A DNA stretch of 64,000 bases from an uncultured virus (IMG/VR IMGVR_UViG_3300036546_000271) (IMGVR_UViG_3300036546_000271); one strand, 5' to 3'; counted from the stretch's first letter, positions 12,245 through 61,733 are shown. Translations and numbers: made by a program. Notes: a model not told the origin generated them from the letters alone.

Positions 12245-12274
12245 TTGAATATATTTATATTATACTGATATAAT
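12245..12274 (+). promoter_or_regulatory. sigma-A-like promoter for miaB fragment 1 (TTGAAT, extended -10 TGATATAAT)
   Basis: Same TGATATAAT motif precedes the second miaB fragment. Confidence 0.55.
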
Positions 12275-12329
12275 AAGTTATGATATTATACAAACAATAA
12301 ACAAAAATAAAATAGATGGAGGAGCAACT

Positions 12330-12485
12330 ATGAGCAAAAGAAAGATAGTTTCAGTCTCACAAGAAGAACTTGAAAGACAAAAACAAATCATGAATGAACT
12401 GAGAAATAAAAATGAAGAATATTATAAACTTACTGGTAGGAGAAAAACCTTTTTTACTCAAACATACGGTTGTCCAGTGGTTTGA
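12330..12485 (+). pseudogene. miaB: 5' fragment of tRNA methylthiotransferase MiaB (MSKRK...TQTYGC, then PVV*)
   Basis: GGAGGAG RBS; homologous to 59832 fragment; ends at the TxGC(QMN) motif. Confidence 0.8.
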
Positions 12486-12490
12486 GTAAA
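12453..12490. other. att junction 1: TTTACTCAAAC-N16-GTTTGAGTAAA centred on TG 12471-12472
   Basis: Perfect 11-bp inverted repeat; CGGTTGTC core shared with junction 2; next to recombinase 3' end. Confidence 0.8.
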
Positions 12491-12552
12491 CATGATTTTT
12501 GATACATGTTGATTTAACTAGGTTTGTGGATAAACTCAAAATCAAAAATACA

Positions 12553-12577
12553 AAAGAAAAAGCCCTTTTTAAAGGGC
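12553..12577 (-). terminator. Probable terminator of integrase 2
   Basis: Minus strand GCCCTT...AAGGGC stem followed by TTTTTCTTTT. Confidence 0.6.
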
Positions 12578-14299
12578 CTATATATCTCTATATACAAATT
12601 TGTGCGTAAGACCATTTTTAAAGCATATAGCAGATACTTTACCATCATCCACTACAACCTTATCAACAACTGTATTCATAAAATCCTTAACTAGCTCCTT
12701 ATCTATAGTCATAACAATCTTTTTGTAGTTGATTGATTTTTTATTTATAAGCTCATTACTAATCATGAAATGACTAGCTTTCTGAAGAAAAGATATATCA
12801 TTATAAGCTACTTGATTGCTATTCTCCTCATGCAATTCTTGGAGCTTATTATTTATATCATCTATTTTACTTTTTAGCTTATGCTTTTGAAGCAGGAAAT
12901 CTTTCTCGGACATAGATTCTTCCGAGAATAAATATAGGTTTTGAAGTCTATCAATTGCTCTTTCATACTTTTCCTTTTCCTTTTTTAATATTTCCATTTC
13001 GGAAATATTTTCTTTTTTTGTCTTAGCTTCATCCTTCGGCACATCAAGAAGCACATTATCTAAATTAGAATAAAGAATTGAAATATAAATGCTTTCAAGT
13101 CCCTTAGTTTCAATTCCAGCTACTTTCTTAAATATTTTTCCGGATAAAAGTATCTTTTCCAGGTCTTTAAGGTTATGCTTTTTAGTCAGTTTTTGCTGTG
13201 CTTTAAGAAGGTTTGCAAGATAATTCATTACAAATGGTCCAAGTGTTACTTCGCTTATCATCTTTGCATCACAGCCCAGAGCTCTAGATTTGCCCTGACA
13301 ACGGTATATTGATGGTCTATATCCATCTTTACGTGGTTGATCCAGGCAAGCATTAAAACCACGGCCACATTTTTTACACTGAATAAGACCACTGAATACA
13401 TGGGTGTGAGTGTTTTTTCTAAGTAGAGCAGTATTCCTTGATGCATTAAAGTCCATTATTTTGTTACAGCTTTCCCATTGCTCCTTGGATATAATAGCCT
13501 CATGGTTATCATCTACAATTATCCATTCTGATTTATCTTTCTTTCTACCCCTAGCACTTTCTCTATAGTTGTATCTGTATGTACCTTTATAAAAAGGATT
13601 TCTTATGATATCTACCACAGTTTTACTTGTCCAGGTTCCACCACGTTTTGTTTTGATACTATTAGAATTGAGTATTTTCATGACCTGAAAGGCTGAACGG
13701 TGCTCTTCGTACTTATCATATATAAATCGAACCACCTTAGCTTCTTCTTCATCCGGAACAGGGAACTTCTTTTCATCATCCCATTTATAACCTAAAGGAC
13801 ATTGTGCTCCATTCCAGAGGCCTTTCTCTGCTCTTGAGAGCATAATAGAAGATACCCTTTCAGCTGTAAGTTTTCTTTCAAGCTCTGCAAATACCAAGAT
13901 TATTTTTAGCATAGCTTCTCCCATAGCTGTAGATGTATCGAATTGTTCATTTTTAGATATAAAAGTCACATTGTATTTTTTTAACTCCTCATACATCTCA
14001 GTAAAATCTTTAAGATTACGAGAGATTCTATCGATTTTCCATACCAGTAGGTGAGTGAACTCTCCATTTCTAATCCTTGTCATCATATCTTGGAAAGCAG
14101 GCCTGTCCATATTTTTCCCAGAATAGCCGGCATCTTCAAAAATTTCATAGTCATCGATACCCAAAAGATACTTTGAATAGTTAATAAGCTCCTTCCTTTG
14201 GAAGGGGAGAGAATCCCTGTCTAATTGATGATGTGTGCTAACTCTTATGTACAATGCTGCTTTTTTAATAAAAATCACCTTCCTTTTAAAAGAGTACAA
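12578..14299 (-). CDS. Large serine recombinase (integrase) of element 2; true start probably near 14269
   Basis: AALYIRVST catalytic Ser, DAGYSG, DRISRN, zinc ribbon CKKCG...YRC, coiled coil. Confidence 0.95.
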   Translation of the reverse strand: MYSFKRKVIFIKKAALYIRVSTHHQLDRDSLPFQRKELINYSKYLLGIDDYEIFEDAGYSGKNMDRPAFQDMMTRIRNGEFTHLLVWKIDRISRNLKDFTEMYEELKKYNVTFISKNEQFDTSTAMGEAMLKIILVFAELERKLTAERVSSIMLSRAEKGLWNGAQCPLGYKWDDEKKFPVPDEEEAKVVRFIYDKYEEHRSAFQVMKILNSNSIKTKRGGTWTSKTVVDIIRNPFYKGTYRYNYRESARGRKKDKSEWIIVDDNHEAIISKEQWESCNKIMDFNASRNTALLRKNTHTHVFSGLIQCKKCGRGFNACLDQPRKDGYRPSIYRCQGKSRALGCDAKMISEVTLGPFVMNYLANLLKAQQKLTKKHNLKDLEKILLSGKIFKKVAGIETKGLESIYISILYSNLDNVLLDVPKDEAKTKKENISEMEILKKEKEKYERAIDRLQNLYLFSEESMSEKDFLLQKHKLKSKIDDINNKLQELHEENSNQVAYNDISFLQKASHFMISNELINKKSINYKKIVMTIDKELVKDFMNTVVDKVVVDDGKVSAICFKNGLTHKFVYRDI

Positions 14300-14440
14300 T
14301 TATAATTATATAATTTCGCTTTTGCAAATAAAAGTCGATATATGTTGTCGATTTATGGAAGAAAAAGACGAGAAGTTTCGATATATCGAACAAATATTTT
14401 GCTATAATTATATATAGGAAAAACTTTCATATTTTTTCTG

Positions 14441-14491
14441 TTGAATTTTCAACATACCGGTGGTAAAATATACATATCGAATGTATGTTCG
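14441..14491 (+). promoter_or_regulatory. sigma-A promoter (TTGAAT-17-TAAAAT, extended TG) followed by a LexA/SOS box CGAATGTATGTTCG (14478-14491)
   Basis: One mismatch to the Firmicutes CGAAC-N4-GTTCG consensus, over the predicted start site. Confidence 0.65.
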
Positions 14492-14529
14492 GTATGTTCG
14501 CCAGTGGGAATGCCAAAGGGGGAATAGCA

Positions 14530-14643
14530 GTGAAAGAAAAATTTACAAAACTATTAAAGTTGATTAATGGCATGACAAGTGAAGAGGTAAAAAAATTCAA
14601 CGATTACATAGTTAATATTAATTATAAAAAAGAAAGCAACTAG
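14530..14643 (+). CDS. 37-aa small protein, candidate SOS-induced antirepressor
   Basis: AAGGGGGGA RBS, GTG start, downstream of the SOS-boxed promoter, convergent with the repressor. Confidence 0.5.
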   Translation: MKEKFTKLLKLINGMTSEEVKKFNDYIVNINYKKESN

Positions 14644-14671
14644 ATTACAATTAAATCAGTTGCTTTCTTTT
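14628..14671. terminator. Bidirectional hairpin/terminator, perfect 14-bp inverted repeat
   Basis: AAAAGAAAGCAACT ... AGTTGCTTTCTTTT overlapping the ends of two convergent ORFs. Confidence 0.7.
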
Positions 14672-15045
14672 GCTTTGTTTATTAACTCTGCTGCTAACAG
14701 AATCCTATCAAGTATCTTGTCCAGTGGCTCATCCTTTATATCTATACCTTTTTCTCTCATCCCATTAATAAATTCAATTATAAAAGCATTAGCTTTATCA
14801 AAATCATAGTCATCATCTATGTATCCTAATTCCACTAATAATTGTCTTAGGGTAGTATTAGTAGCTTTTGCTATTTTTTCTAAAGTTTCAATTGTAGGCA
14901 CAACTGGCTTTTTACTCCTGGAATCTATTCCCTTTTCTAAAGAAGCAACGTAACTGTGACTTAAATCACAAAGCTTTGCAAAATCCCTTAATGACAAATC
15001 TTTTTTATCTCTATATTCTTTTATGTAATCTCCCAGTGTTCTCAT
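14656..15045 (-). CDS. Phage CI-like Xre repressor without a peptidase domain
   Basis: HTH (LSLRDFAKLCDLSHSYVASLEKG), divergent from cro. Confidence 0.85.
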   Translation of the reverse strand: MRTLGDYIKEYRDKKDLSLRDFAKLCDLSHSYVASLEKGIDSRSKKPVVPTIETLEKIAKATNTTLRQLLVELGYIDDDYDFDKANAFIIEFINGMREKGIDIKDEPLDKILDRILLAAELINKAKESN

Positions 15046-15069
15046 AACAAGTCAACTCCTTAGATTAAA

Positions 15070-15203
15070 TGTAAGATATGTCTTACAATATTATTTTATA
15101 GTAAAATTAATTATTTTTCAAAAAAAAATATGAATAATTAGTACTGCATACTTGACATACTATGTAATGTATATTATACTTTTATTGTAAGATATACTGA
15201 ACA
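15070..15203. promoter_or_regulatory. Lysis/lysogeny switch: 18-bp TGTA-N11-ACA-type operators (15070, 15140, 15163, 15186) and promoter TTGACA-17-TATACT (15152-15180)
   Basis: 15070-15087 is the palindrome TGTAAGA-TATG-TCTTACA; three related sites are spaced 23 bp apart. Confidence 0.65.
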
Positions 15204-15220
15204 GATTCGGAGGTGTAAAA

Positions 15221-15466
15221 ATGTTGGCAAAACAGAAAGCAAACAAAGATTTTAAAAATAGAGTTAGAGAATTACGTTTAAAAAAGGATCTTACACAAGA
15301 AGAATTGGCTAATAAAGCTCATCTTACAAGACCTTATTTATCTGACATAGAAAGAAATATTTATCAACCAGGAACTCTAACAGCTATAAGATTAGCTGAC
15401 ATATTAGGCGTTACGGTGAAGCAGCTTTTTTTTGACGAATCTGTACAGCATACAGAACAACAGTAA
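15221..15466 (+). CDS. Cro-like HTH regulator
   Basis: LTQEELANKAHLTRPYLSDIERN HTH; first lytic gene. Confidence 0.85.
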   Translation: MLAKQKANKDFKNRVRELRLKKDLTQEELANKAHLTRPYLSDIERNIYQPGTLTAIRLADILGVTVKQLFFDESVQHTEQQ

Positions 15467-15976
15467 GCTTGTACATTTTTATTATCTCACATCCCAACAG
15501 CCAAAAAAAGTAGTAAATATTACCAAGAAATTTTATAGAAAGGATGAATAAAATGGATAAATATGTTGAGCAAAAACTTAAAGAGCTTCTCCAAAGATGC
15601 AAAAACAAGGCAGAGGAAGTAAAAGAAGAAAGTTCTGATGATTTTACTAAAGGATTCGAAGTCGGATCCACGATGGTTATATATGAACTAGAAGAGTTCA
15701 TCAAAACATACCTGGACTAAAGGAGGTGAAACAGAGTGGAGGATAAAGTGCCTTCAAAACTTGATATTCAAAAGACTTTAATAAAGGAGCTTAAGTCTGG
15801 AGCAAAACTTGAAATTAATATTAGACTTAAAACAACAAAGCCTGGACAAGTATTAGAGTCCTTAGACGATATAGAAGCTTCTTTTGAAAAGTTAATGAGC
15901 AACTTCATTTACAAGTAAAAATTCAGCTTACTTTAAAATATGGAAGGGGGGACAAGAAAAAGGAGAGTGAAAATAA

Positions 15977-16177
15977 TTGAAGCTGAAAATCAGAGAAGCA
16001 AGACTTAGTAAAGAAATGACAATTAATGAACTAGCAAAGAAAGCAGGTGTTTCAAAGAGTTTTATTAGCGACCTTGAAAACGGCAAATCCAAGAATATTT
16101 CACTGCTTAAGCTTTGCAAGATTTCCAAGGCACTTGATACAGATGTTACTGAACTTTTTACATGTGAAGATGAATGA
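15977..16177 (+). CDS. Xre-family HTH protein
   Basis: MTINELAKKAGVSKSFISDLENG. Confidence 0.85.
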   Translation: MKLKIREARLSKEMTINELAKKAGVSKSFISDLENGKSKNISLLKLCKISKALDTDVTELFTCEDE

Positions 16178-17266
16178 TAAAGGGGAGATAGCAGATGAAT
16201 GACATCCAAGAGAGAATAGATAGAATGTGGAAGTATCTTCGAGAAAATGGCATTCATTCTGAAGAAGAATTAGACAAAGCACTAGAGAAGATGCCAAAGC
16301 TTAATATAGGCATATTTGTATCACCACTTAAAGGAGGTGAAGAGTGTGCCACAGAGCCGACTAGATAGAGTAGATATCAAGATAACAGTTGACGCAAAAC
16401 TTAGTGGCGAGTTTGATAATATTCTATCCAGTGTTGATACTTGGAACTATAAAGAAGTAAATAATGGAAAAGTTATTTTCTATATAGATTTTAGAAGCGA
16501 TGTAGATGATGCAAAGAAAGATATAGAGAAGGTTCTAGATAAAGCTAAGGAAATACAAAAGATTTATGAAAGTGTTAAATATCCATATGAAGTTATAGAG
16601 ATGCTTAAGAAAAGAAAGGGGGCATAAAAGTGGAAAATTTACACGCCTTAGCCTATGCTGTACTAACATACAGAAGGTTAGAGGGCCAAGAGCATGATGA
16701 AGAGTGTTTTGCAAATGTAATGGAAGCTCTGATTAATACCATACCAGTTGAAGAAGCTGTGAAAAAGGCTTTTAAAAAGGGGGATAAAAATGCTTAGGGA
16801 AATGATTGAAAACAGAATAGGGAAGATTGATGATGATACTTTTGAAATGGCCTTAGATATGGCCACCGATGATATCAAGTTTAACCGAATCAGCTTTGGC
16901 AAGAGGACAAGCCTCAGTAAAGCATTAGAAATCATCATATCATGTGTAAATGTAGCCCAAAAAATAGAAAAAGGCAGCTCAGAGGAGCCACCAACCAACC
17001 AAGTTAATTATATCAGATATGGGCTACATAACACAATACCTATTATAGAAATTGCTTAGTAAAGAAGGTGAAGTTATGACTTTAAAAGAGAAGGTTGAAG
17101 AAATATTAAAGATTCAGATATCAGACGAAGACTTCAAAGAAGCCCATAGTTATGCAAAGCACAAGCTAGAATGGCAAAATAAGCACTTTGGAACTAATCA
17201 TGGAGAATATTATTTAATACTGCTTATTGCTGATACATACAGGGAGCAGCAGTTTTCTAAATATAC

Positions 17267-19255
17267 ATGGGAGTTATGCAAGGAAAGAATGAAAAAAGAG
17301 GAAGGAGTGGTTTTATGCTAATAAATATTAAAAGCCTAAGGCTTAAGAATTTCAAAGGCATAAAGGATTTGACTATAGACTTTGGCAAAACAACAAATAT
17401 ATTTGGAGACAATGCAACAGGAAAGACAACCTTATTCGATGCATTTACTTGGCTACTCTTTGATAAAGATAGCACAGACAGGAAAGATTTTGGAATTAAG
17501 ACCTATGATAGCAACGGTGAAGTAATCCATGGACTGGACCATGAGGTCGAAGGAGTATTAAAAGTAAATGGAGCAGAACTGATCCTGAAGAAAACGTATA
17601 AAGAAAAATGGACTAAAAGACGTGGAGAGGCAGAAAGACAGCTCACCGGTCATACAACAGAATACTATATCAACGATGTACCGGTAAAGAAAAAAGACTA
17701 CACCGATAAGATTAACGAACTAGTAGATGAAAATATATTTAAACTCGTAACAAATCCACTATATTTCAATATGAATCTGAACTGGAAAGACAGAAGAAAT
17801 ATCCTTCTAGAGGTGGTAGGAGATATATCAGACCAAGATGTAATGTCAGCAAGCGATAAACTAAAAAGACTTGAAGATCTACTTGGAGATAAGAGCTTGG
17901 AAGACTTTAAAAAGATGATCTTATCAAAGAAGAAAAAACTCAATGAGGAGCTAAAGTCCATACCTTACAGAATTGATGAGTTAAATAACTCAATTGAAGA
18001 TATAAATCCGGACACTTTGGACTTTAGAAAAAGAGGTATAGTAGCTGCTATTAAGCAGATTGAAGAAAGTCTTATGGATAATTCAAAGATGCACGAAGGT
18101 CTTATGAGGGAAAGGGACAAGCTATTTGAGCTTAAATCTAAGCTTAGAGAAATAGAATATAACGCTAAACTGGACGCAGAAAAACCATTAAGACAACTTC
18201 AAAATAGCTTAAAACAGACAGAAAATGAAAAGTCTCAACTGGATATGGAGCTCAATATGATAAACAATTCACTAGAAACCAAAGAGGACTTGATAAAAAC
18301 CATAGAAAAAGAGCTCATAGAGCTAAGGGAAAAATGGGACCAAGTAAACCAAGAAGAGCTTCATATACCTGAAGATAGCTTTATATGTCCAACCTGTAAA
18401 AGACCTTTTGAAGAGCATGATATAGAGCATAAGAAAACTGAAATGATGACAAACTTCAACCAAAATAAGTTAAAGAGATTAAATGAAATAAGCTCTACTG
18501 GTAAACGTAAAAAGGAAATGCTTGAAAAGATTAAAACAGAAGCTGAAAACCTCATGGCAAAGAAAAAATCTGTTTTATCAAGACTAGAAGCTTTAAATAA
18601 GACCATAGAGCAAAGAAGAGCAGAAGTAGAAAACTACAAACCGGTTGTAAATCTAGAGACTAACAAAGAATATATTCATATTCAAAATCAAATCAAAGAA
18701 CTTGAGCCAAAACTTTCATCGCCAGTACAAGCTGAAAAAGAAATCGAGGAGCATAAAGCTAAGAAAAAAGAGCTGGAAAGGGAACTTGAGGAGATAAATA
18801 ATAAATTAGCTCACCACGAGCACAACCAAAAGGCTAAAGAGAGAATCAAAGAGCTTATGAATAGAGAAAAAGAATTAGCAAATATGATAGCAGAACTAGA
18901 GGGTCAAGAATATCTATGCGAGGAGTTCATAAGAACCAAGGTGGACCTTTTAGAAAGTAGGATAAATAGCAAGTTTAAAAATGTACGATTTAAGCTATTC
19001 AACACCCTCGTTAATGGAGCACTCGACGAGTGTTGCGAAACACTTATAGACGGAGTACCATTCCAGGATGCAAACAATGCAGCAAAGATAAATGCCGGAA
19101 TAGACATAATAAATACACTTTCAAAATACTACAACTTTAGTGCACCGGTATTCATAGACAATAGAGAGAGTGTCAATGAACTTATAGACTGTGATAGCCA
19201 AATAGTTAACTTGATAGTAAGCAAAGACAAAACATTAAAGGTAGAGGTGGCATAG
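17267..19255 (+). CDS. SMC/Rad50-like AAA ATPase of the phage recombination module (start probably ~17315)
   Basis: LKNFKGI, GDNATGKTT Walker A, long coiled coil with CPTC hook, PVFIDNRE. Confidence 0.85.
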   Translation: MGVMQGKNEKRGRSGFMLINIKSLRLKNFKGIKDLTIDFGKTTNIFGDNATGKTTLFDAFTWLLFDKDSTDRKDFGIKTYDSNGEVIHGLDHEVEGVLKVNGAELILKKTYKEKWTKRRGEAERQLTGHTTEYYINDVPVKKKDYTDKINELVDENIFKLVTNPLYFNMNLNWKDRRNILLEVVGDISDQDVMSASDKLKRLEDLLGDKSLEDFKKMILSKKKKLNEELKSIPYRIDELNNSIEDINPDTLDFRKRGIVAAIKQIEESLMDNSKMHEGLMRERDKLFELKSKLREIEYNAKLDAEKPLRQLQNSLKQTENEKSQLDMELNMINNSLETKEDLIKTIEKELIELREKWDQVNQEELHIPEDSFICPTCKRPFEEHDIEHKKTEMMTNFNQNKLKRLNEISSTGKRKKEMLEKIKTEAENLMAKKKSVLSRLEALNKTIEQRRAEVENYKPVVNLETNKEYIHIQNQIKELEPKLSSPVQAEKEIEEHKAKKKELERELEEINNKLAHHEHNQKAKERIKELMNREKELANMIAELEGQEYLCEEFIRTKVDLLESRINSKFKNVRFKLFNTLVNGALDECCETLIDGVPFQDANNAAKINAGIDIINTLSKYYNFSAPVFIDNRESVNELIDCDSQIVNLIVSKDKTLKVEVA

Positions 19256-19604
19256 ATGATAAGTATCAAAATAACTATAGAAAGTTTTTCTAAAGAAACT
19301 GGCAGGCAACAAATGACACTAGGAGTTGAAGAACTCATACAACTAAACAAAATTCTAAATAAATTAAACGGAGAGTTTAACTTTAATAAATTTATTAAGA
19401 AAAATCAAGCAAACTTAAAAGATGTGGAGCAAGGACTGTTAATAAATGAACTCTGCAAAAGACCAGGAGTTCAATCCTTGATAGTTAAAAAAGGATGTGA
19501 ATATGGAATAATGCATGAAGATGAAAGAAAGACAAAAGAAAAAGTGGGCATTGGCCCTGCAAATATAATAATAATTTCTAATGATTTAGAAGGAGGAGAT
19601 ATAA

Positions 19605-20354
19605 ATGGCAAACGAGTTAATGTCAAAGGAAGTAAGCTTTAAGGTAAATGGAGAAGAGGTAAAACTTACAGGCAACACTGTAAAAAACTATTTAACAAGA
19701 GGAAATGATTCTGTAACAGACCAAGAAGTTGTAATGTTCATAAACCTTTGTAGATACCAAAAGCTAAATCCATTTTTAAACGAAGCTTACTTGGTAAAAT
19801 TCAAAGGAGCTCCGGCTCAAATTATAACTAGCAAAGAAGCTTATATGAAAAAAGCTGAAATGAACCCACAGTATGATGGGATGAGAGCAGGACTAATAGT
19901 TCAAAGAGAAAACAATATCATCGAAGTAGAAGGAAGCTTCACTTTAAAAGGAGACACCCTTTTAGGAGCATGGGCTGAGGTGTACAGGAAAGATAGAAAG
20001 TACCCATATGTAGCAAAGGTAAGTTTTGATGAATACAACAAAGGACAAAGTACCTGGAAGCAGATGCCTAAGACAATGATAAGAAAAGTCGCAATAGTAC
20101 AAGCCTTAAGAGAAGCCTTCCCTGTAGATCTTGGAGCTCTATATGTAGAAGAAGAGGCTCAAGCAGTAAGCGATGTTGAACATGAGGTAAAAGAAGAGAT
20201 TCAAAATAAGGCAAATTCAAAAACGATTAACTTCCCAAAGGACAATGTTAAGGATGTTGATTATAGAGAGGTCAATGACACTAAACCTGAAACAACTACA
20301 ACCAAAGATAAGAGAGCTGCAGAACAAATGAGCATTGAAGGACCAGGATTCTAA
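19605..20354 (+). CDS. RecT/Bet-family single-strand annealing protein
   Basis: LNPFLNEAYLVKF and W..MP.TMIRKVA..QALREAFP motifs. Confidence 0.9.
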   Translation: MANELMSKEVSFKVNGEEVKLTGNTVKNYLTRGNDSVTDQEVVMFINLCRYQKLNPFLNEAYLVKFKGAPAQIITSKEAYMKKAEMNPQYDGMRAGLIVQRENNIIEVEGSFTLKGDTLLGAWAEVYRKDRKYPYVAKVSFDEYNKGQSTWKQMPKTMIRKVAIVQALREAFPVDLGALYVEEEAQAVSDVEHEVKEEIQNKANSKTINFPKDNVKDVDYREVNDTKPETTTTKDKRAAEQMSIEGPGF

Positions 20355-21091: not shown

Positions 21092-21195
21092 GGACAAGCT
21101 CTTATTTGGCAGTATACCCCTATTGTAATTATTTCCATTAAGTATAAGAATTATACCTAATTTATAATATTTGTCCCCCTTTTGATTAACATAGA

Positions 21196-23788: not shown

Positions 23789-23792
23789 TTCT

Positions 23793-24987: not shown

Positions 24988-24989
24988 AA

Positions 24990-49580: not shown

Positions 49581-49590
49581 GAGGTGGAAC

Positions 49591-50244: not shown

Positions 50245-50249
50245 GGTAG

Positions 50250-51603: not shown

Positions 51604-52064
51604 CAAACCTCTTTCCGGAAAATATGGATTTTGAAATAACAGATATGACAGAAAGCGAAAGTGAAAGTGTTGAAAATTTCAAAAAAACATATGCTTTTGA
51701 CTTTGAAAAAGGAGATTTTATAAGAGGACCAGATGGAAAAATCATTTTAGTGAACAGACTCGAGGCATACAAGCAATGGTGTCAAAAGGTGCTACTAACA
51801 AAGAGAGGTAAACACCTTTCGTATACGCACCTTTATGGCCAAGAATACTACAAATTAATCGGACAAGATATCAGTAAATCAGCAATAGAACTAGAGGTTG
51901 AAAGAATGACCAGGGAAGCTCTTATGGTCCATCCATATACTAAAAAAGTTGAAAATTTTGATTTTGAATGGGATAAAAACGAAGAAATCTTATATTTCAC
52001 TTTTGATGTTATGACAGTTATGGATGAGCTGTTTACTATTGAGCATGTAGAAGAAATGAGGTGA
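51600..52064 (+). CDS. XkdS/DUF2634-like baseplate protein
   Basis: FDFEKGDF, EAYKQW..K.L.T.R, YG.E. Confidence 0.8.
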   Translation: MTNLFPENMDFEITDMTESESESVENFKKTYAFDFEKGDFIRGPDGKIILVNRLEAYKQWCQKVLLTKRGKHLSYTHLYGQEYYKLIGQDISKSAIELEVERMTREALMVHPYTKKVENFDFEWDKNEEILYFTFDVMTVMDELFTIEHVEEMR

Positions 52065-52068
52065 TGAA

Positions 52069-53199: not shown

Positions 53200-53993
53200 T
53201 AACTTCTTCTAAAGGAAAACAAATGTTTCAAGCAGTAAGTCCTATATATTATCAATCGATTATAATGCAATCTATTTTTCAAGTCATAGGAACAGAATGG
53301 GAAGATATAGATAAAATAGTAGACGAGATATTATTGCAGTTATTCCCACAAACAGCTACTTGGGGTTTAAGGTATTGGGAGGAACTTTTAAATATACCAG
53401 CAAACGAATCAATTCCCATAGAAAAAAGAAGATCCTTAGTAATGACTAGAATAAAACTCAGAGCACCAATGACACCAGCAAGAATATCAAGTGCAGTAAA
53501 ATCTTTAGCGGGTCAAATTGCAGATTTTGTAGAGGTAGTCGAAAACGTTGAACCTCATGTATTTAGAGTTGTTCTAGGAGCTAAAGAAAGCGGGATTGAT
53601 TACTTAAGCATTTATAGAGAGATAAAAAGAATAAAACCCTCTCATGAAAGCTTCTATTTAGGTAATAGCTACCTAAGATCCTTTAGTTTGAATGGAAAGT
53701 ATATACGTGGTTTTTCTAAAATTCAACATACAATAGGTACATTTGTATGCAGTAAAGATGATGTTGAATTTTTAGCCACAAAAGGATATAGAAGAGTTGA
53801 GGATATCACAATAGAGAAAAACAGAATATATGGAACATCGGATCCTTTGGTATGTAGCGAAAAATTAATACACACAACCGAAGGTTTTTTAGATAAAAGC
53901 ATAATGGACCAGCAAGTGAGTAGCTCAACTGGAACCTCAAACCCTTTGGTTTGTAGTAAGAACCTCAAGTATACAAGAATAGAGGTGGTGTAA
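53196..53993 (+). CDS. XkdU/DUF2313-like tail protein
   Basis: QLFPQTATWGL..WE, IKPSH. Confidence 0.85.
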   Translation: MITSSKGKQMFQAVSPIYYQSIIMQSIFQVIGTEWEDIDKIVDEILLQLFPQTATWGLRYWEELLNIPANESIPIEKRRSLVMTRIKLRAPMTPARISSAVKSLAGQIADFVEVVENVEPHVFRVVLGAKESGIDYLSIYREIKRIKPSHESFYLGNSYLRSFSLNGKYIRGFSKIQHTIGTFVCSKDDVEFLATKGYRRVEDITIEKNRIYGTSDPLVCSEKLIHTTEGFLDKSIMDQQVSSSTGTSNPLVCSKNLKYTRIEVV

Positions 53994-55224
53994 TGAATAA
54001 TTATGGAATTCAAAGAATTTTAGACAGTATAGAGCTGATGGTTAAAGAGGCAAGGGTAACATTTTCTGATGGCAACAAAGAAATGATCCCTATAAGGAAA
54101 GTAGAAAGAGAAAATGAAACTATAAGAATATTTTTCTACATCCCTGCAGAGCAAACCGCTCAAACTATAACAAGAGTAGAGCTCATAGATAATAGAGGTT
54201 CGGTTATAGATGAACAGACTGATGTAGTTGAAAAAGCTAAAAGGCAAGGTTTTATGACTGCTTTTGAATACACGTATAGCGAGGTGAATTAGATGTACGA
54301 TATTATCAAGTGGTATGATGAAGTAAAAGACCAAAACGGAAATCTTTTACAAGAAGGAACTTTGCATGATGAAGTCAATATGAACCGTATGGAAGAAGGG
54401 ATATACCAAGCGAATCTATTGGCTTCAATGTTAGTTCAAAAAGAGCTTCAACAGAAAAAAGTATTAGCAGCATTGGAAGGAGAGACGGGTCAAATTACTT
54501 TGACTAATAGCGAAACATTTCCTTTCAATAATTCCGTTCAGACTATAGCAATGGAAAAGCAGAGAGATGCTTTGGACTATAGAGTTTCTGTTGAAGTTAT
54601 ATCTAGTGATGGTGTTGTTGGAGATATCATAATCTCTGATAAGCAGCTAAATGGTTTTAAAATCGAATACACAGGTAGTGCTACAAGTGCAACTATTAAA
54701 TATTACGTCCAAGGAGGCATGTATCAATAATGGCTAATGTTATACTTAAAAGCGATGATAGAAAACAAAGAGAAAGACAAATTTTAAAGGATTTTGGATA
54801 TAGTTCTAATACAGCTAGTAAAGAAGCTAGAGAAAAAGCTGAATATATAGCAGAAAAAACTATGGAAATCAAGAAAAGTTGGGGGTGTAAGTAGATGAAT
54901 GTGATTGAAAAAAATGCAGGTCCTAAGATTGAATATAAACAAGAAAGTGAAAGCATAATTTCATTTAGAGATGAATTATTTTTAAATCTTGAAAAATGCG
55001 AAAGAGACTATCCTGTGCAAATTGATATATGTGAAAATGAAGATGGAATACTAACTACAGGCATTTCAAAGAAATATATAGCTCAAATAGAAATACCAGC
55101 ACGAAAATACAGTGAAATTCCAATACAAGAAACAGGAACTGAAATCGAGGGAGAATCAATAAAGCTCGAGCCAGTTCCTTTTTCAATGGACAATATAATA
55201 TTAACATTATGGGCGATAAAATAA
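53993..55224 (+). other. Four small tail-fibre-associated genes (53993-54292, 54293-54730, 54730-54894, 54895-55224)
   Basis: Three are homologous to 4931-6012; 54730-54894 (54 aa, MANVILKSDDRK...) is translationally coupled and absent from element 1. Confidence 0.7.
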
Positions 55225-55236
55225 GGAGGTTATAAC

Positions 55237-56301
55237 ATGAATTATGATATGCTAAAACTTGCGGTAGAAGGACTTAGTGGAGGAAAAAACACTATTTTGT
55301 TAGATGATAGAGGTATGCCAAGCTTTATGGTTAGATTTCCTAAATTAAAAGATTCTGACCTGGTAGATGGTGCTACGCAGGATACTCACGATGCATTTAT
55401 AGTCGATGGTGTAGAAAAAGACTTTTTCTATGTTTCTAAATACCAAAACATAGTAAAAGATGATAGAGCATACAGTTTGCCACTAATGGATCCAAGGGTA
55501 TATGTGAACTTTGACCAGGCTAAAAACTATTCCGAAAACAAAGGATTAGGATGGCATCTTATGACAAATGCCGAGAGAGCAGCTATAGCTTTATGGTGTA
55601 AAAAGAACGGTTTTATGCCTCGTGGGAATAACGATTATGGCAAAGACGTATCTGCCCCTCATGAAAAAGGTATTGTTACTTATAAATATACAAGTGGTGA
55701 GACTGAATTAGATGGTAGAGTTGCTACTGGTTCTGGCCCTGCAAGTTGGGCACATGACGGTACAACAGATGGAATCTATGATTTAAACGGGAACGTCTGG
55801 GAATGGTTTGGAGGCTACAGACTTGTAGATGGGGAAATTCAAATCATCCCATATAATAATGCTGCTATGCAAGTAAATCAAGATCCAGATAGCACTCTTT
55901 GGAAAGCGATTATGCCAGACGGTTCATTAGTTGAACCAGGAACAGCTGGAACTCTTAAATACGACGCAACTAATGCAGATGGCAGTGGTGGAATTCAAAT
56001 TGGAACAGATGTTGTTAATCAAACAACTGGAGACCCATATGCAGCTCAAACATTAGAAACTATAGCTGCAAAATCTGGAATTACAATACCAAATATCATG
56101 AAAACTTTAGCTTTAGCTCCTATAGACTCTGACCACGGAGGAGATTACCTGTATATGAGAAACCTTGGAGAGAGACTTCCGTCTTTCGGTGGCTGCTGGC
56201 ACAGCGGTTCTTGGGCTGGTGTGTTTGCGGTGTACCTCCCCCACCCTCGCTCGTACTCCCTCAGCAGTATCGGTTTCCGCTCCGCTTATATTGAACTGTA
56301 A
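55237..56301 (+). CDS. DGR target protein 2, Mtd-like with C-terminal variable lectin-type domain
   Basis: Homologous to 6016-7071 throughout; contains VR2. Confidence 0.92.
   Translation: MNYDMLKLAVEGLSGGKNTILLDDRGMPSFMVRFPKLKDSDLVDGATQDTHDAFIVDGVEKDFFYVSKYQNIVKDDRAYSLPLMDPRVYVNFDQAKNYSENKGLGWHLMTNAERAAIALWCKKNGFMPRGNNDYGKDVSAPHEKGIVTYKYTSGETELDGRVATGSGPASWAHDGTTDGIYDLNGNVWEWFGGYRLVDGEIQIIPYNNAAMQVNQDPDSTLWKAIMPDGSLVEPGTAGTLKYDATNADGSGGIQIGTDVVNQTTGDPYAAQTLETIAAKSGITIPNIMKTLALAPIDSDHGGDYLYMRNLGERLPSFGGCWHSGSWAGVFAVYLPHPRSYSLSSIGFRSAYIEL
56176..56286 (+). repeat. DGR2 variable repeat (VR2), 111 bp
   Basis: Matches 56744-56854 apart from 14 substitutions, all opposite TR adenines. Confidence 0.97.
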
Positions 56302-56331
56302 TCTGAAATCTGTAAAACTGATAATCTGAGT

Positions 56332-56351
56332 AGTCCTGCGATAGCAGGGCT
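56332..56351 (+). promoter_or_regulatory. DGR2 hairpin (AGTCCTGC-GATA-GCAGGGCT)
   Basis: 8-bp stem with one G:T pair; same GATA loop and position as DGR1. Confidence 0.8.
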
Positions 56352-56361
56352 TTATATAGCA

Positions 56362-56718
56362 TTGGAGGTTGCAATATTGAAGCAAGATTTCAAGATACTT
56401 CAAAAAACTTATGACATGATACTTTATGGCAATATATGTTTAAAGCAGTTTCCGAAATTTGAAAAACACGTAATGTCAGCGGATATACGAAGTTCCATGT
56501 ACAAATTATTAAACCTTATAGTTAGAGCTAATAAAAAATATTACAAGAAAACTACTTTACAAGATATAGATATAGAACTAGAAGTTTTAAGAACATATAT
56601 AAGACTTGCAGCGGATCCAAAACTAAAATATTTACCGCTTAAGAAATATGAAAATTGGAGCAAAATGCTTAACGAGATTGGTAGAATGTTAGGAGGGTGG
56701 ATGAAATCCACTAAATAG
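56362..56718 (+). CDS. avd: DGR accessory variability determinant
   Basis: Homologous to 7167-7508; EIGRMLGGW. Confidence 0.92.
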   Translation: MEVAILKQDFKILQKTYDMILYGNICLKQFPKFEKHVMSADIRSSMYKLLNLIVRANKKYYKKTTLQDIDIELEVLRTYIRLAADPKLKYLPLKKYENWSKMLNEIGRMLGGWMKSTK

Positions 56719-56743
56719 GTATAATATGGGGAATGGATCGTAA

Positions 56744-56854
56744 CTTCCGTATTTCGGTGGCAACTGGAACAACGGTTCTAGGGCTGGTGTGTTTGCGGTG
56801 AACCTCAACAACCCTCGCTCGAACTCCAACAACAGTATCGGTTTCCGCTCCGCT
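56744..56854 (+). ncRNA. DGR2 template repeat (TR2)
   Basis: AAC-rich copy of VR2; 22 adenines. Confidence 0.95.
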
Positions 56855-57030
56855 CATTTTCATAGTCAGAAGGCAAGCGGCTCAAGGGCACTTGTTCAGC
56901 ACATGAAAATAAGGGGTCCATTTCCCTGCCGATAAGGCAAAAAATTATATTGCTATGAAAACAGTTAGTAGGTTAATTCTCGAAAGGTGTTACACATAGC
57001 ATTTAAATACAACATGGAGATGACGAGAAA

Positions 57031-58170
57031 ATGAAAAGATATGGCAATATATATAAACAAATATATGATTTCGAAAATTTGTACCAGGCCTATTTAGAGG
57101 CAAGAAAAAACAAAAGGTACAGAGCTGACGTTTTAGAATTTAGTGCAAACTTAGAAGAAAACCTCATAGAAATTCAAAATGAATTGATATGGAAAGAATA
57201 TGAGGTTGGAAGATATAGAGAGTTCTATGTATATGAACCTAAAAAAAGGCTTATAATGGCACTCCCTTTTAAGGACAGAGTGGTTCAATGGGCGATTTAT
57301 AGAGTATTAAACCCAATATTTAATAAAACCTTTATAGAGCATAGTTATGCATGCAGAAAATGGAAAGGAACTCACAAAGCAGCAGATAAATTGCAGGATT
57401 GGCTTAGGAAACTAGATAGAAAACCAATTAAACACTACTATCTCAAAATGGATATATCAAAATATTTCTACAGAGTAGATCATGACGTTGCATTAAATAT
57501 CCTTGAAAGAAAAATAAAAGATAAAGACGTGATTTGGCTGCTAGAAAAGATTATCAAGAGCAAACAAAAGCCATTTGGATTGCCATTGGGTATGGAGCCT
57601 GGAGATTGCCCTAAGCATATGAGGTTGTATAACAAAGGAATGCCTATAGGCAATCTAACAAGCCAGCTCCTGGCAAACATATATCTCAATGAACTGGATC
57701 AATTCTGTAAACACGACCTAAGGATTAAGTATTACATCAGATATATGGATGACTTTATTATTTTACACCATGATAAGAAATATTTACACAGGTTAAAAGT
57801 GGAAATAGAAAGCTTTTTAAACAGCCAACTTAAACTGCATCTCAATAAAAAGACTTGCATTAGGCCTATAAGCTTAGGCATAGAGTTTGTAGGTTTTAAA
57901 ATATGGCCAACCCATAGGAAATTAAAGAAAAAATCGGCTATCAAAATGAAAAGAAGACTTAGGTATTTAAAGAAGGCATATGCCAGAGGGGAGGTTGCTT
58001 TAGATGAAATAAATGCAAGCATACAAAGTTATTTAGGGATACTGCAACATTGTAATAGTTATTCTCTCAAAAAGTCTATTTTTAAAGACTTGATTTTTAC
58101 AAAGGACAAAATAAAAGAGTTCGCTAATAAAGGTATAGAGCAAGAAAACTCCAGTGGCTCACAAACATAA
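57031..58170 (+). CDS. DGR reverse transcriptase 2
   Basis: LKMDISKYF, GMPIGNLTSQ, YIRYMDD. Confidence 0.95.
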   Translation: MKRYGNIYKQIYDFENLYQAYLEARKNKRYRADVLEFSANLEENLIEIQNELIWKEYEVGRYREFYVYEPKKRLIMALPFKDRVVQWAIYRVLNPIFNKTFIEHSYACRKWKGTHKAADKLQDWLRKLDRKPIKHYYLKMDISKYFYRVDHDVALNILERKIKDKDVIWLLEKIIKSKQKPFGLPLGMEPGDCPKHMRLYNKGMPIGNLTSQLLANIYLNELDQFCKHDLRIKYYIRYMDDFIILHHDKKYLHRLKVEIESFLNSQLKLHLNKKTCIRPISLGIEFVGFKIWPTHRKLKKKSAIKMKRRLRYLKKAYARGEVALDEINASIQSYLGILQHCNSYSLKKSIFKDLIFTKDKIKEFANKGIEQENSSGSQT

Positions 58171-58184
58171 ATTGGAGGTGTATT

Positions 58185-58439
58185 ATGGACCAGACGCTTT
58201 GTAACGAAAAACATAAAAGAATTGAAGAAAGATTGGAAATACAAGATAGAAGATTAAACAATCACTCGGAAAGACTTGATAAAATAGAACAGCTTCAATC
58301 AAGGACAGAGGCTCAAATTTCTAGTCTCTGCGACCAAATCAAGTCACTTGTTACAACAATGAGGTGGTTTATAGGATTGTTAGTAGGAGCTTTTGTAAGC
58401 TTCTTTTTTTATGCAGTTCAACAAAGTCTTTTTAAATAG
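58185..58439 (+). CDS. XhlA-like lysis-associated membrane protein
   Basis: Coiled coil (RLNNHSERLDKIEQ) plus C-terminal TM segment, before endolysin. Confidence 0.75.
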   Translation: MDQTLCNEKHKRIEERLEIQDRRLNNHSERLDKIEQLQSRTEAQISSLCDQIKSLVTTMRWFIGLLVGAFVSFFFYAVQQSLFK

Positions 58440-58445
58440 GAGGTT

Positions 58446-59162
58446 TTGAAAATGAAAGTGATTATAGACCCAGGGCACGGAGGGAAGGATCCTGGTGGTG
58501 GAAGTAATAACTATTGGTTAGAAAAAGATAAAACATTAGAAATATCGTTATATCAATTGAAAAGACTCAAAGAGCTTGGGATAGATGTAGAAATCACAAG
58601 AGATAAAGACATATATTTAGGCCCTACTGAAAGAACAAAGATAGTAAGAAATTCTAATGCCGACATATGCATTTCAAACCATATAAATGCAGGAGGCGGT
58701 GAAGGTGCTGAAACGATACACAGTATTTTTTCAGATGGCAAGTTGGCAACTATCATTCTGAATAAAATGGTGGCTGCAGGACAGAAAAAAAGAAGAGTCT
58801 TTTGCAAAAAAAGCTCAAGATGGCCTGGAAAGGACTATTATTACATGCACAGGCAAACTGGCAATGTGGAAACTGTTATAGTAGAGTATGGGTTCGCAGA
58901 CAATGAAAATGATACAGAAAGAATAAAAAAGCATTGGAAAGAATATGCTGAGGCAGTTATTAGAGCCATATGTCAATATGCAGATATTCCATACTCAAAT
59001 CAGGCTAAAGAAGATAAAGCAGATGGACCGAGTCCGTGGGCTAAGGAAGCTTGGGAAAAATCTATTAGGATAGGTCTAAATGATGGAGCAGGAGCTAAAA
59101 ATCCTGTAACAGAAGAGCAACTTATGGTTTTCTTCGATAGACTTGGGCTATTAGACAGATAA
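58446..59162 (+). CDS. Endolysin, N-acetylmuramoyl-L-alanine amidase (amidase_3)
   Basis: IDPGHGGKDPG, EKD, ISNHINAGGG.G.E, IVEYGF. Confidence 0.92.
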   Translation: MKMKVIIDPGHGGKDPGGGSNNYWLEKDKTLEISLYQLKRLKELGIDVEITRDKDIYLGPTERTKIVRNSNADICISNHINAGGGEGAETIHSIFSDGKLATIILNKMVAAGQKKRRVFCKKSSRWPGKDYYYMHRQTGNVETVIVEYGFADNENDTERIKKHWKEYAEAVIRAICQYADIPYSNQAKEDKADGPSPWAKEAWEKSIRIGLNDGAGAKNPVTEEQLMVFFDRLGLLDR

Positions 59163-59170
59163 AGGGGTGA

Positions 59171-59437
59171 TTGCAAATGAAAAAGAAAATGGAGTTTTCT
59201 AAAATCTTAGCGATAATTATAACCATACTGTTTGTAGTAAGTATAATTTTTGTATTTGCAGTGTGGTATTTTGAAAACAGGCTTGGAACAGAAATTCTTT
59301 CTTATGTTGCAATGCCTTTTGGCGTTGTTATAAGCGGGTATTTTGCAAAGGCGGGCTTTGAGAACCATAGAAAAATCAATAATGCAGGCAAAGAAATCGT
59401 AAAGTTTAATAATGAGGAGGAATATTATAATGGATAA
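59171..59437 (+). CDS. Small two-TM membrane protein (holin-like)
   Basis: EFSK.I, two hydrophobic helices, Y..KA..EN. Confidence 0.6.
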   Translation: MQMKKKMEFSKILAIIITILFVVSIIFVFAVWYFENRLGTEILSYVAMPFGVVISGYFAKAGFENHRKINNAGKEIVKFNNEEEYYNG

Positions 59438-59750
59438 TAATGCTGTAATAGAAATTGGGACTATCATAATCGCTCTTATAGGTGCGGTTATAACGTATAT
59501 AGTTACACCATACATCAAAAGCAAGACCACCGCAGAGCAATACAAAAATATAGAGTTTTGGGTTAGGTTTGCAGTTAAAGCTGCAGAACAAATATTCAAC
59601 CAGCCAGGTATGGGAAATAAAAAGAAACAATATGTCATTGACTTTTTAACCAGCAAAGGCATAAACATAACACTTGATGAGTTGAATGTATTGATTGAAG
59701 CTGCAGTCCAAGAACTGAATTTAGAAAAAAGAGATTTGACCAGGGAATAA
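59412..59750 (+). CDS. LL-H-type holin (start probably ~59430)
   Basis: Close homolog of 10127-10447. Confidence 0.8.
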   Translation: MRRNIIMDNNAVIEIGTIIIALIGAVITYIVTPYIKSKTTAEQYKNIEFWVRFAVKAAEQIFNQPGMGNKKKQYVIDFLTSKGINITLDELNVLIEAAVQELNLEKRDLTRE

Positions 59751-59766
59751 TCCCTGGTCTTTTTTA
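59738..59766 (+). terminator. Late operon terminator
   Basis: GACCAGGGA-ATAA-TCCCTGGTC followed by a T run. Confidence 0.85.
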
Positions 59767-59779
59767 ATTTAAAGAATTT

Positions 59780-59801
59780 TGATATAATAATTTGATATAA
59801 T
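59780..59801 (+). promoter_or_regulatory. Tandem extended -10 elements (TGATATAAT twice) for miaB fragment 2
   Basis: At 59780-59788 and 59793-59801, upstream of a GGAGGAG RBS. Confidence 0.55.
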
Positions 59802-59831
59802 AAATAATACAAAATTTAAGGAGGAGAATAA

Positions 59832-59984
59832 ATGAGCAAAAGGAAGGAAATAAATGTATCTAAAAACGAACTAGCTAAGCAGCAAATTTATATAGATAAA
59901 ATAAGAAAGATGAACGACGAATACTACAAAAGAACAGGCAAGAGGAAAAAACATCTCACTCTAACGTTCGGTTGTCAGATGAAC
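59832..59984 (+). pseudogene. miaB: 5' fragment of MiaB (MSKRK...LTFGCQMN), reading on into unrelated sequence to 60068
   Basis: TFGCQMN is the N-terminal signature of MiaB-type methylthiotransferases. Confidence 0.85.
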
Positions 59985-59996
59985 TCACTGAGATGT
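59951..59996. other. att junction 2: ACATCTCA-N30-TGAGATGT centred on TG 59973-59974
   Basis: Perfect 8-bp inverted repeat with the same symmetry centre (Cys codon) as junction 1. Confidence 0.75.
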
Positions 59997-60017
59997 ATTT
60001 TTATTTCCCAACTTTCA

Positions 60018-61733
60018 TCACTTTCTATAAACAAACCTATGGGTAATTCCATTCACAAACTCAATTGACGATATGCGTCTATCCTCCTCTATAGTTATGT
60101 TTTTGATAACACACCTCATGAAATCCTGGAGCAACTCTTTGTCTACCATTTTTACAATTTTGTTGTAGTTAATAGGTTTATTTGTGGCAAGGTTTTGAGC
60201 AATAAGATACTGAGTTGCTTTTTTTATAAAACTCAAATCATGACCTGGAAGGCTCTTTGCATATTCCTGGGTCCTTTTTTTAATTTTTGTATTTATACTA
60301 TTTATCCTTTTTTCTATATCTTGCTTTTTTATTAAGTAATTTTTTTCTGACATACCTTCATCGCTGAACAGATATAAATCTTCTAATCTTTTCAAAGCTC
60401 TTTCAAACTTCTTCTTTTGAGATTTTAAAGACTCAAGCTCTGTGTCTTTTTCAATGCTCTTAATTTCATCTTTCTGGTCAAACAATATATTACCAGTACT
60501 TTTTAATAAAATATCGTATGTGGTTTTTAAATCCTGCGGAATAATTCCAGCAACATTTTTAAATGCCGGACCTTTTAACAAAATCCTCTCAACTTCTTTT
60601 TCTGTGCCTTTCGTTCCATAAGTATTGATAAAATTATTTGCTTTTACTAGGTTGGCGATATAATTGATAATAAATGGTCCAAGCTTAACCTCTCCAATGC
60701 TCCCGCTGCATGTCCTATATTTCTTTTTGTTATGAACGTAATTATAACACCTATACACAGATGGTCTGTATCCATCAGATCTAGGACGGTCAACAGTGGC
60801 TATATAATTTTTATTACATTTGCCACAAGTTATTAATCCCTTGAAAACATGTGTATGGTTTTTTAGAGTTCTATCAGATCCTCTGCCATGTGCATTGGAA
60901 TCCATTATAGCGTTGCATTTTTCATACTGAACTTTTGAAATAATAGCGGGATGATTGTCTTCGACCACAACCCATTCTTCCTCAGGACGAATTTTTCCAT
61001 GTGGACTATATCTGTAGTTGTATCTATAGGTTCCTATATAAAATGGATTCCTAATTACATCAGCTATAGTTTTTGTGGTCCAATGTCCATTCCTTTTGGT
61101 GCGTATTCCACGCTCCTCTAAAAGATGTTTCACTTCTCCTGTAGATCTAGTTTTTTCATACGAATCAAAAATAAAACGAACTGTTTCGGCCTCTTTTTCA
61201 TTGATTACAGGAAACTTTGTTTCTTCATCAAAATCATATCCAAGAGGAACTGGAGCTCCGTTCCATAAACCTTTCTCTGCTCTAGATAGCATTATAGAGT
61301 AGACTCTCTCTGCAGCTAACTTCCTTTCAAGTTCTGCGAATACTAGGATTATCTTAAGCATTGCCTCTCCCATAGCAGTGGATGTGTCAAATTGTTCATT
61401 TTTGGATATAAAAGTAATATTATGCTTTTTTAGCTCCTCATACATTTCAGTGAAGTCTTTTAAATTTCTTGATATACGATCTATTTTCCAGACCAAGAGA
61501 TGGGTAAATTCTCCATCTCTTATCCTTTTCATCATTTCCTGGAATTTTGGACGATCTGTGTTTTTACCACTATAACCAGCATCTTCAAACACTTCATAGT
61601 TATCTATGCCTAACAAGTATTTAGAGTAATTGATGAGCTCCTTCCTTTGGAAGGGAAGGGAATCTTTATCCACTTGATGATGGGTTGACACTCTTATGTA
61701 TAAAGCTGCTTTGTTTTCTGTGTTTTTATCCAT
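60018..61733 (-). CDS. Large serine recombinase (integrase) of element 3
   Basis: Close homolog of 12578-14299; catalytic domain nearly identical, C-terminal domains diverged. Confidence 0.95.

Follow-up and report, generated by a model that had tools for sequence, protein, structure and literature searches.

We analysed a 64-kb stretch of DNA (hereafter, the window) from an uncultured virus (IMG/VR IMGVR_UViG_3300036546_000271), in which a fragment of the 5' end of miaB, a gene for a tRNA-modifying methylthiotransferase, lies beside a large serine integrase gene at two places, the junctions J1 and J2. In the reading that we favour, with a probability of about 0.65, each of these units is the phage attachment site (attP) region of a temperate contractile-tailed phage that carries a spare miaB start, and the junctions are intact attP sites between phages lying head to tail. 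The left (P) arm of attP would be the end of a cassette composed of a terminator, an extended -10 promoter, a ribosome-binding site (RBS) and 48 codons of a MiaB-like N-terminus. Upon integration, the host promoter and 5' end would be stranded beside the integrase gene and read into the phage P' arm. The phage promoter and N-terminus would at the same time be joined in frame to the miaB body, and the enzyme would still be made, from the phage promoter.

Two spare miaB starts beside serine integrases

According to the preliminary description of this DNA, a unit of promoter, RBS, MiaB N-terminus of ~50 codons and minus-strand serine recombinase occurs twice, at 12330 and 59832, and both copies were found at these positions (Table 1). 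The open reading frame (ORF) of fragment 1, MSKRK...TQTYGC followed by PVV and a stop, comprises 51 codons from the ATG at 12330. That of fragment 2 also begins with MSKRK (ATG at 59832), remains open to 60068 and overlaps the 3' end of the integrase 3 gene in antisense. The two fragments had been described as homologous and diverged, with little DNA common to both breaks, and the alignment bore this out: 24 of 48 residues match up to the Cys, and only CGGTTGTC is common to both around the break.

In the protein search, fragment 2 was 61% identical over its full length (51 aa) to the N-terminus of a 476-aa protein, P0002, with a score of 532 bits against TIGR01574, the MiaB equivalog (cut-off 355). 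Because this model begins at residue 40 of P0002, fragment 2 would consist of a ~39-residue non-core extension and the first 9 core residues up to the Cys. By the same match, it contains the N-terminal UPF0004 strand of MiaB and the first Cys in a GCQMN motif, a residue that in MiaB is a ligand of the Fe-S cluster. Fragment 1 alone matched none of the 10 candidates scored in the search for longer proteins, and it is assigned to MiaB because it resembles fragment 2. Neither fragment is a full-length MiaB (UPF0004, radical SAM and TRAM domains); fragment 1 leaves MiaB after the Cys and fragment 2 after QMN.

A large serine recombinase was defined as one protein of ~450-700 aa with resolvase catalytic, recombinase and zinc ribbon domains, and integrases 2 and 3 both score above the Pfam cut-offs for this domain set (PF00239, PF07508 and PF13408). 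In the region 59780-59801, where two extended -10 motifs can be read, the promoter scan lists only a weaker TTGATA-18-AATAAT. The cassette promoters are predicted to be active.

The crossover at the first Cys codon

The centre of J1 (T12471 G12472) is the first two bases of the Cys codon of fragment 1, and the centre of J2 (T59973 G59974) the first two bases of that of fragment 2. Mirror complementarity about these centres is 20/30 at J1 and 17/30 at J2, compared with 7.8 +/- 2.5 for random centres, and both junctions therefore show the dyad symmetry of an attP around a non-palindromic central dinucleotide, TG. Among related integrated phages, the overlap between the left and right prophage ends (attL and attR) is TG only in three of five mtaB-type pairs, those of Tepidibacter thalassicus, Tissierella simiarum and Oceanobacillus; it is TAGGATG in T. 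formicigenes and GGTTG in the IMG/VR provirus G003, with three of the rows re-centred by eye. In three proviruses (L020, L021 and L033), ~100 nt beyond the integrase gene, the stranded host copy of miaB reads TGG GGT TGA and ends at the former Cys codon. The base after TG, an A, thus comes from the phage arm.

That the phage family recombines at the Cys codon had been proposed before, and the centring of the dyad on TG and the TG-only overlaps agree with it. Together, the data support strand exchange by the integrase at the first two bases, TG, of the codon for the first Fe-S-ligating Cys in miaB, and the attL, attR and attP sequences of relatives suggest that these integrases catalyse recombination between attP and the bacterial site (attB). 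In large serine integrases, an outer recognition motif lies ~5 bp further from the centre in attP than in attB half-sites. Counted by eye, the motif ATGA lies at +20 in the P' arms of J1, two Tepidibacter sites, Tissierella, Oceanobacillus and a further relative (G004), and at +15 in the B' arms of three mtaB attR sites and of the gene-side end in sequencing run X3; in G003, AAGA lies at +20 versus +15.

In-frame fusions in relatives

The proposal that the phage supplies a promoter and an N-terminus was substantiated by in-frame fusions in X3, G003, the Clostridium phage phiCT19406C and five mtaB cases. In X3, a run of a different study, one contig (contig 16; 14,768 nt; depth 61.4) tracks the window over 54001-59983 with 126 differences. 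Beyond 59983 it reads TGAGCATGATTC..., giving ...FGCQMN-EHDSEKLAG in frame, and continues for 1739 nt. A second contig of the same run (contig 18; 5067 nt; depth 61.2) has MKKYIIETW(GC) before the P' arm of J2 (P'3) and integrase 3. In G003, a stranded fragment (MIKFDD...ETWG, then a stop) adjoins the integrase gene, and ~45 kb from it a 455-aa ORF, MNFDID...STFGCQMNEEDSE, stands behind TATGATATAAT and an RBS. This ORF is a full MiaB with a different N-terminus (566 bits on TIGR01574). Both forms of the site occur in G004. Its attL lies downstream of an aminotransferase gene of the host; its attP has the same P' arm, preceded by a second promoter and N-terminus of diverged sequence.

Sister integrases with 53-59% identity sit at the paralogous gene mtaB, behind dnaJ-prmA-rsmE. 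The assignment to MtaB is based on rsmE, prmA and dnaJ upstream and on a fused ORF of 454 aa with a score of 472 bits against the MtaB equivalog. In five of five mtaB-side genomes, the intact gene at or beyond the far prophage end begins with a new and longer N-terminus, preceded by an RBS and a promoter-like region. The scan of IMG/VR gave 20 loci, 16 of them with at least 40 nt beyond the integrase gene; a MiaB-type fragment up to the Cys codon was present in nine, an MtaB-type fragment in one, and six had no recognisable fragment. The scan of genome_contigs gave 10 loci, with an MtaB-type fragment (ending ..VAFYTLG) in seven, a MiaB-type fragment in one and neither in two.

Alternatively, the MiaB-like fragments may serve solely as recognition arms of attP, with lysogens losing MiaB or relying on excision. 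The last ~28 bases before TG lie within the inverted repeats, and the coding sequence is to that extent constrained by the integrase; likewise, the conserved G-K/R-R-K-K codons, as read from the sequence, coincide with a run of A at the arm's outer edge. The cassette, however, measures ~230 bp, far beyond the length of an att arm, and it includes a terminator, an extended -10 and a consensus RBS 5 bases from the ATG. Moreover, an element-borne start codon and N-terminus join the body of the target gene in frame in every attR seen (X3, G003 and the five mtaB genomes), and the fused ORFs have full length and score above the equivalog cut-offs for MiaB or MtaB. We therefore regard a pure recognition role as very improbable. 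The fused MiaB is probably functional, and the ms2i6A37 modification of host tRNA would then depend on the prophage promoter in any single lysogen of the family, not specifically in a stack of prophages. The idea that the fragments are duplicated host DNA was dropped, as the attP of G004 and the fusion in X3 show their phage-borne origin.

Several observations concern individual relatives. G004, a 46.7-kb metagenome contig (L035, L037), runs from host DNA through attL and the entire phage to attP and repeats the initial 82 nt of the integrase side; it looks like an assembly wrapped from the integrated into the circular form. The phage-borne MtaB N-termini of L038, L039, L040, L041 and L042 exceed their stranded host counterparts by 20-30 residues. 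In three of them, ..YKKYGRKKT.. or ..KSKKT.. precedes the TLGC strand, resembling the miaB cassettes of the window, and the A-run that encodes these lysines coincides with the outer edge of the P arm. In Oceanobacillus jeddahense (G009 contig C2, 964-1102 kb; L009, L041), which has a single integrase of this family in its genome, the stranded mtaB 5' end beside the integrase gene and the intact mtaB are 138 kb apart, reflecting either a very large element or a rearrangement. In a Peptostreptococcaceae locus (L010 12004-15521), no recognisable mtaB 5' fragment lies beyond the integrase gene; AAA_15/AbiEii-type and GmrSD-type genes form a defence-like island there, and the phage-type MtaB start is 44 kb distant. 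The record end of FP_Brigit has no MiaB fragment. The records of six IMG/VR proviruses (G001, G002, G011, G012, G013 and G416) stop at gene boundaries short of attR, and a MiaB protein search in five of these, which returned nothing, is uninformative because it also missed fragments that are present.

Attachment sites, stacking scars or an assembly artefact

Both junctions have phage-type arms on both sides, and the comparisons support a match of each to the integrase on its right. Single proviruses show the same links across the junctions. G001 combines an integrase 2-like gene (85% nucleotide identity) with genes like the late genes of unit 1 (88% over 201-6413). G416, which is 92% complete, combines an integrase 3-type integrase (76% aa identity) with a body collinear with unit 2 over 17.4-58.4 kb, late genes included (67-75% nucleotide identity). 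J2 itself is bridged by contigs of the runs X1, X2 and X4 and by a JGI contig (L053). These contigs stay within the linkage from integrase 3 to the late genes of unit 2 and therefore show a phage attP, not a stack. The X3 contigs fit one prophage, with integrase 3 on the left and the unit 2 late genes on the right, and the attP of this prophage would be exactly J2. Given the phage-type arms on both sides, the better symmetry and the linkage across the junctions, each junction is most simply one phage's own attP.

The preliminary description had instead taken the units as hybrid junctions that arose when the next phage entered a regenerated target, an interpretation that the symmetry of the arms as found and the single-provirus linkage speak against. 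In such serial stacking, each P arm plus the host B' arm (attR) would form a new attB, and J1 and J2 would be hybrid P(n)/P'(n+1) scars at miaB. It would account for a phage-borne N-terminus that mimics the host one and keeps the core GGTTGTC (J2 also keeps the QMN codons), and for three distinct phages with different immunity genes, as superinfection of a lysogen requires. An IS110 copy in unit 2 suggests a long stay in a cell, and J2 is found, slightly varied, in four data sets, as for an inherited arrangement. When the arms are re-paired as the stacking model demands, though, complementarity falls to 14/30 for P2/P'2 and 13/30 for P1/P'3, and linkage of integrase 2 with the late genes of unit 2 was found in none of three relatives examined. 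X3 has B/P'3 and P2/B' at equal depth. All 13 relatives in which the attL-side flank was examined (8 from genome_contigs, 5 from IMG/VR) have non-phage genes and no second phage end there, L010 with its defence-type genes among them. Of 399 scored genomes of the Tissierella simiarum class, three had an integrase with E <= 1e-120 and none had two copies, with three candidates scored per genome. To our knowledge, attR is not an integration substrate for large serine integrases, which also counts against stacking. We consider stacking unlikely.

A broader form of the idea extends beyond the window. The phage-built miaB 5' end would be a working attB at which differently immune relatives pile up, the promoter of the last phage would drive ms2i6A37, and serine integrases would repeatedly target the TG of the first Cys codon in each of the three bacterial methylthiotransferase paralogues (miaB, mtaB and rimO), retargeting with a matching spare N-terminus. 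This, taken as a whole, appears doubtful.

The order of segments could also have been created by the assembler. The window derives from a metagenome; a sequencing-run index points to shale-gas metagenomes, with the runs X1 and X2 as possible sources. If related circular or excised phages co-occur in this shale-gas sample, an assembler crossing the stretches they share could have written late genes 1-attP-integrase 2...late genes 2-attP-integrase 3 without these being one molecule. Every independent contig that bridges J2 stays within single-phage content (integrase 3 to late genes 2), and the independent data on continuity concern J2 and unit 2 outside ~24-34 kb. Shared stretches are plausible, since G416 is an integrase 3-type phage with a unit 2-like body nearly throughout. 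Where they can be compared, however, the units are 65-75% identical and too diverged for k-mer crossings. In addition, depth is even across J2 (11.9-13.1 in X1 and 13.0-14.8 in X2), and over 43.3-62.3 kb the window is borne out by Logan contigs of X1 (19,029 nt). An assembly walk is thus not a likely explanation. The absence of the IS110 copy from G416 and the even depth across J2 speak for real, cell-resident DNA.

If the junctions are intact P/P' sites between related, differently immune phage genomes, the genomes may have been joined as a tandem array or cointegrate by homologous recombination, or by integration of a multimer. Circular genomes may have recombined homologously with a related resident; unit 2 encodes RecT.

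Several points weigh against intact attP sites between head-to-tail phages. The re-paired arms (14 and 13 of 30) are still well above chance, which makes the symmetry argument a matter of degree. Phages are mosaic, and the linkages in G001 and G416 (70-88% nucleotide identity) are not proof for close relatives in this sample. The two X3 contigs may derive from two prophages or two strains. The independent bridging data concern J2 and not J1, whose exact 50-mer is absent from IMG/VR; an alignment search with the fragment found no relative in IMG/VR and one JGI contig only. Three different phages joined via intact attP would be unusual and need an extra event, none of which was seen. Promoter-like sites are no commoner than in shuffled sequences, and the calls are consensus matches only. 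Lastly, no host half-site, host gene or miaB body lies within the 64 kb, which leaves the location at miaB putative for this DNA.

Layout of the window

The window (35% G+C) is phage DNA only. Unit 2 is a complete genome of ~47 kb (12578-59750) that runs from a serine integrase to an amidase and a holin, and unit 3 starts at 60018 with an integrase followed by a LexA-like repressor. In the segment comparison, units 1 and 2 share 65-71% nucleotide identity and the genes of integrases 2 and 3 ~75%. Being only 65-75% identical where comparable, the three segments are, judged by their DNA, distinct phages and not repeats of one phage.

The IS110 stretch is the sole gap in the otherwise collinear match to G416. 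Units 1 and 2 each carry a diversity-generating retroelement (DGR; 6016-8910 and 55237-58170, with RVT_1 matches in Pfam). In unit 1, the variable repeat (VR; 6948-7059) differs from the template repeat (TR; 7543-7654) only at TR adenines (11/11 mismatches), and in unit 2 (VR 56166-56292, TR 56734-56860) 15 of 20 mismatches are at TR adenines. Differences between other runs and the window cluster at 56183-56239, and X2 contigs break at VR and TR, as expected of an active, variable VR.

In unit 3, seven 24-nt repeats (62291-62494; core GTCGGTTTAACAGA; spacing 23-32 nt) lie between a 183-aa ORF and the cI-like repressor gene; they are perhaps protein-binding iterons, and the Logan contigs of X1 and X2 break at them. 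Three partly palindromic 19-nt motifs (TTTCCCATAACGGGGATAT) at 63251-63369, between divergent cI-like and cro-like genes, look like operators.

Table 1. Features of the 64-kb window, in order of position.
Feature	Position	Strand	Basis or detail
Phage unit 1, right (late) part	1..12242	+	Pfam; 65-71% nucleotide identity to matching part of unit 2
Unit 1 content: LysM protein, YQBQ-like, baseplate J, Mu gp48-like, DGR target and reverse transcriptase	1..12242	+	Pfam
Unit 1 content, continued: holins, SLH protein, 388-aa last ORF	1..12242	+	Pfam
Promoter-like site TTGAAT-18-TATAAT, TG before -10 (extended -10)	12245..12274	+	10/12 consensus matches
RBS GGAGGAG, unit 1 cassette	12318-12324	+	Sequence
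MiaB N-terminal fragment 1	12330..12485	+	48 codons to Cys codon 12471-12473, then PVV, stop
attP-like site J1	12443..12500		21-nt inverted arms 12443-12463 / 12480-12500, 86% complementary
Terminator-like hairpin after integrase 2	12560..12579	-	Terminator scan
Large serine integrase 2, 573 aa	12578..14299	-	Pfam Resolvase, Recombinase, Zn_ribbon_recom; 55% identity to phiCT19406C integrase
Phage unit 2 body	14300..59750	+	Pfam; collinear with G416
Unit 2 early content: helix-turn-helix (HTH) repressor-like gene (14656-15045, minus), SMC-like ATPase, RecT, replication genes, methylase			Pfam
IS110-family insertion amid unit 2 structural genes	38340..40234	-	Pfam DEDD_Tnp_IS110 and Transposase_20; transposase 38589-39881
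Unit 2 late content: terminase, portal, capsid, sheath, tape measure, baseplate, DGR, amidase, holin			Pfam
Terminator 3' of holin gene, before unit 2 miaB' cassette	59738..59759	+	Terminator scan
Two TGATATAAT copies (extended -10 motifs)	59780-59788, 59793-59801	+	Read from sequence
RBS GGAGGAG, unit 2 cassette	59820-59826	+	Sequence
MiaB N-terminal fragment 2	59832..60068	+	48 codons to Cys codon 59973-59975, QMN retained, then unrelated residues
attP-like site J2	59946..60001		13-nt inverted arms 59946-59958 / 59989-60001, 92% complementary
Large serine integrase 3, 571 aa	60018..61733	-	Pfam; 60% identity to integrase 2; 76% to G416 integrase
Phage unit 3, left (early) part	61762..64000		183-aa ORF (minus), seven 24-nt repeats, operator-like repeats, small HTH ORF
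LexA-like cI repressor, unit 3	62586-63218	-	Pfam

Implications and comparison with known systems

The results would make miaB and mtaB further members of the small group of tRNA- or ribosome-modification genes that serve as phage landing sites, with the same codon of paralogous enzymes targeted by one integrase family and, at rimO, by a very distant second one. This appears to be a natural case of retargeting between related sites for which the attP, attL and attR sequences are available, and may be useful for serine-integrase engineering. If the favoured reading is true, the gene of a universal tRNA-modification enzyme would be under a phage promoter in lysogens, and the enzyme would have an N-terminus encoded by the phage. 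It also calls for caution, as intact attP sites in metagenome contigs can mimic stacks of prophages.

In a literature search that left most subscription journals outside, miaB or mtaB was nowhere named as a serine-integrase site in work on prophages or integrases at methylthiotransferase genes, and the main text of a 2026 provirus-border survey has no mention of either gene. Judged by title or abstract, none of the papers listed for phiCT19406C appears to deal with its attachment site.

Integrative elements can accrete in tandem at one site, as SCCmec (staphylococcal cassette chromosome mec) does at rlmH. In arrays of SCCmec and of streptococcal integrative and conjugative or mobilizable elements, several elements with site-specific recombinases lie head to tail at one conserved gene end. 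The internal junctions of those arrays are usable hybrid att sites, whereas the junctions of the window look like intact attP sites, and its chromosomal ends lie outside the window. Listeria phage A118 in comK is a serine-integrase prophage that splits a gene without replacing any part of it. A118 at comK and SPbeta at spsM share with the window phages a large serine integrase and an attB within a protein-coding gene. In those two cases the gene is inactive until excision, whereas the phages described here would bring a substitute 5' end and leave the gene whole.

The closest named phage is phiCT19406C (KM983332), whose integrase is 55% identical. Each end of its record carries a hairpin, a promoter region and an RBS, followed by a MiaB-like N-terminus that ends in WGCQM, and one end leads into a P' arm beside the integrase gene. 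It differs in its annotated 38-bp attL/attR, which lie at the hairpin ~150 bp upstream and not at the Cys codon, in its shorter N-terminus and in being a single prophage. The comparison suggests that its true crossover is ~150 bp downstream of the annotated att, at GGTTGTCAAATG in the MiaB-like N-terminus duplicated at both ends (L001 1-230, L002 1818-2004), in which case the annotation would need correcting.

Replacement of the 5' end of a tRNA-modification gene has been described for dusA-specific integrases, islands and prophages (Farrugia et al. 2015, PMC4482086). That work reports putative -10/-35 elements before and after insertion and restoration of the original gene by excision, as in the scheme proposed here; the dusA elements differ in their tyrosine integrases, their proteobacterial hosts, the gene and the short replacement (PMC4482086).

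For rimO, a table row lists a Variovorax prophage with a serine recombinase at this gene (PMC9658991), and the Burkholderia phage JC1 (Bcep22-like) integrates into the rimO 5' end, where its authors predict that RimO stays functional (PMC9144972). JC1 resembles the window phages in having a phage serine recombinase at the 5' end of a MiaB/RimO-family methylthiotransferase gene and in supplying an ATG and new first residues in frame (PMC9144972). Its attP (OM283127) reads MSKKYSIGIVSLGC/P, with a palindrome, CTCGGG-TG-CCCGAG, whose central TG belongs to the same first Cys codon. JC1 differs in its target, rimO, in its host phylum, in an attP upstream of the integrase gene (downstream in the window) and in an integrase with only 19% identity (E = 0.05). 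It supplies ~10 codons, with no promoter and no joined phage genomes described in the text seen (PMC9144972). Replacement of a 5' end is thus already known from dusA and from JC1 at rimO; what the phages described here add is a larger cassette and the targeting of one codon in paralogous genes.

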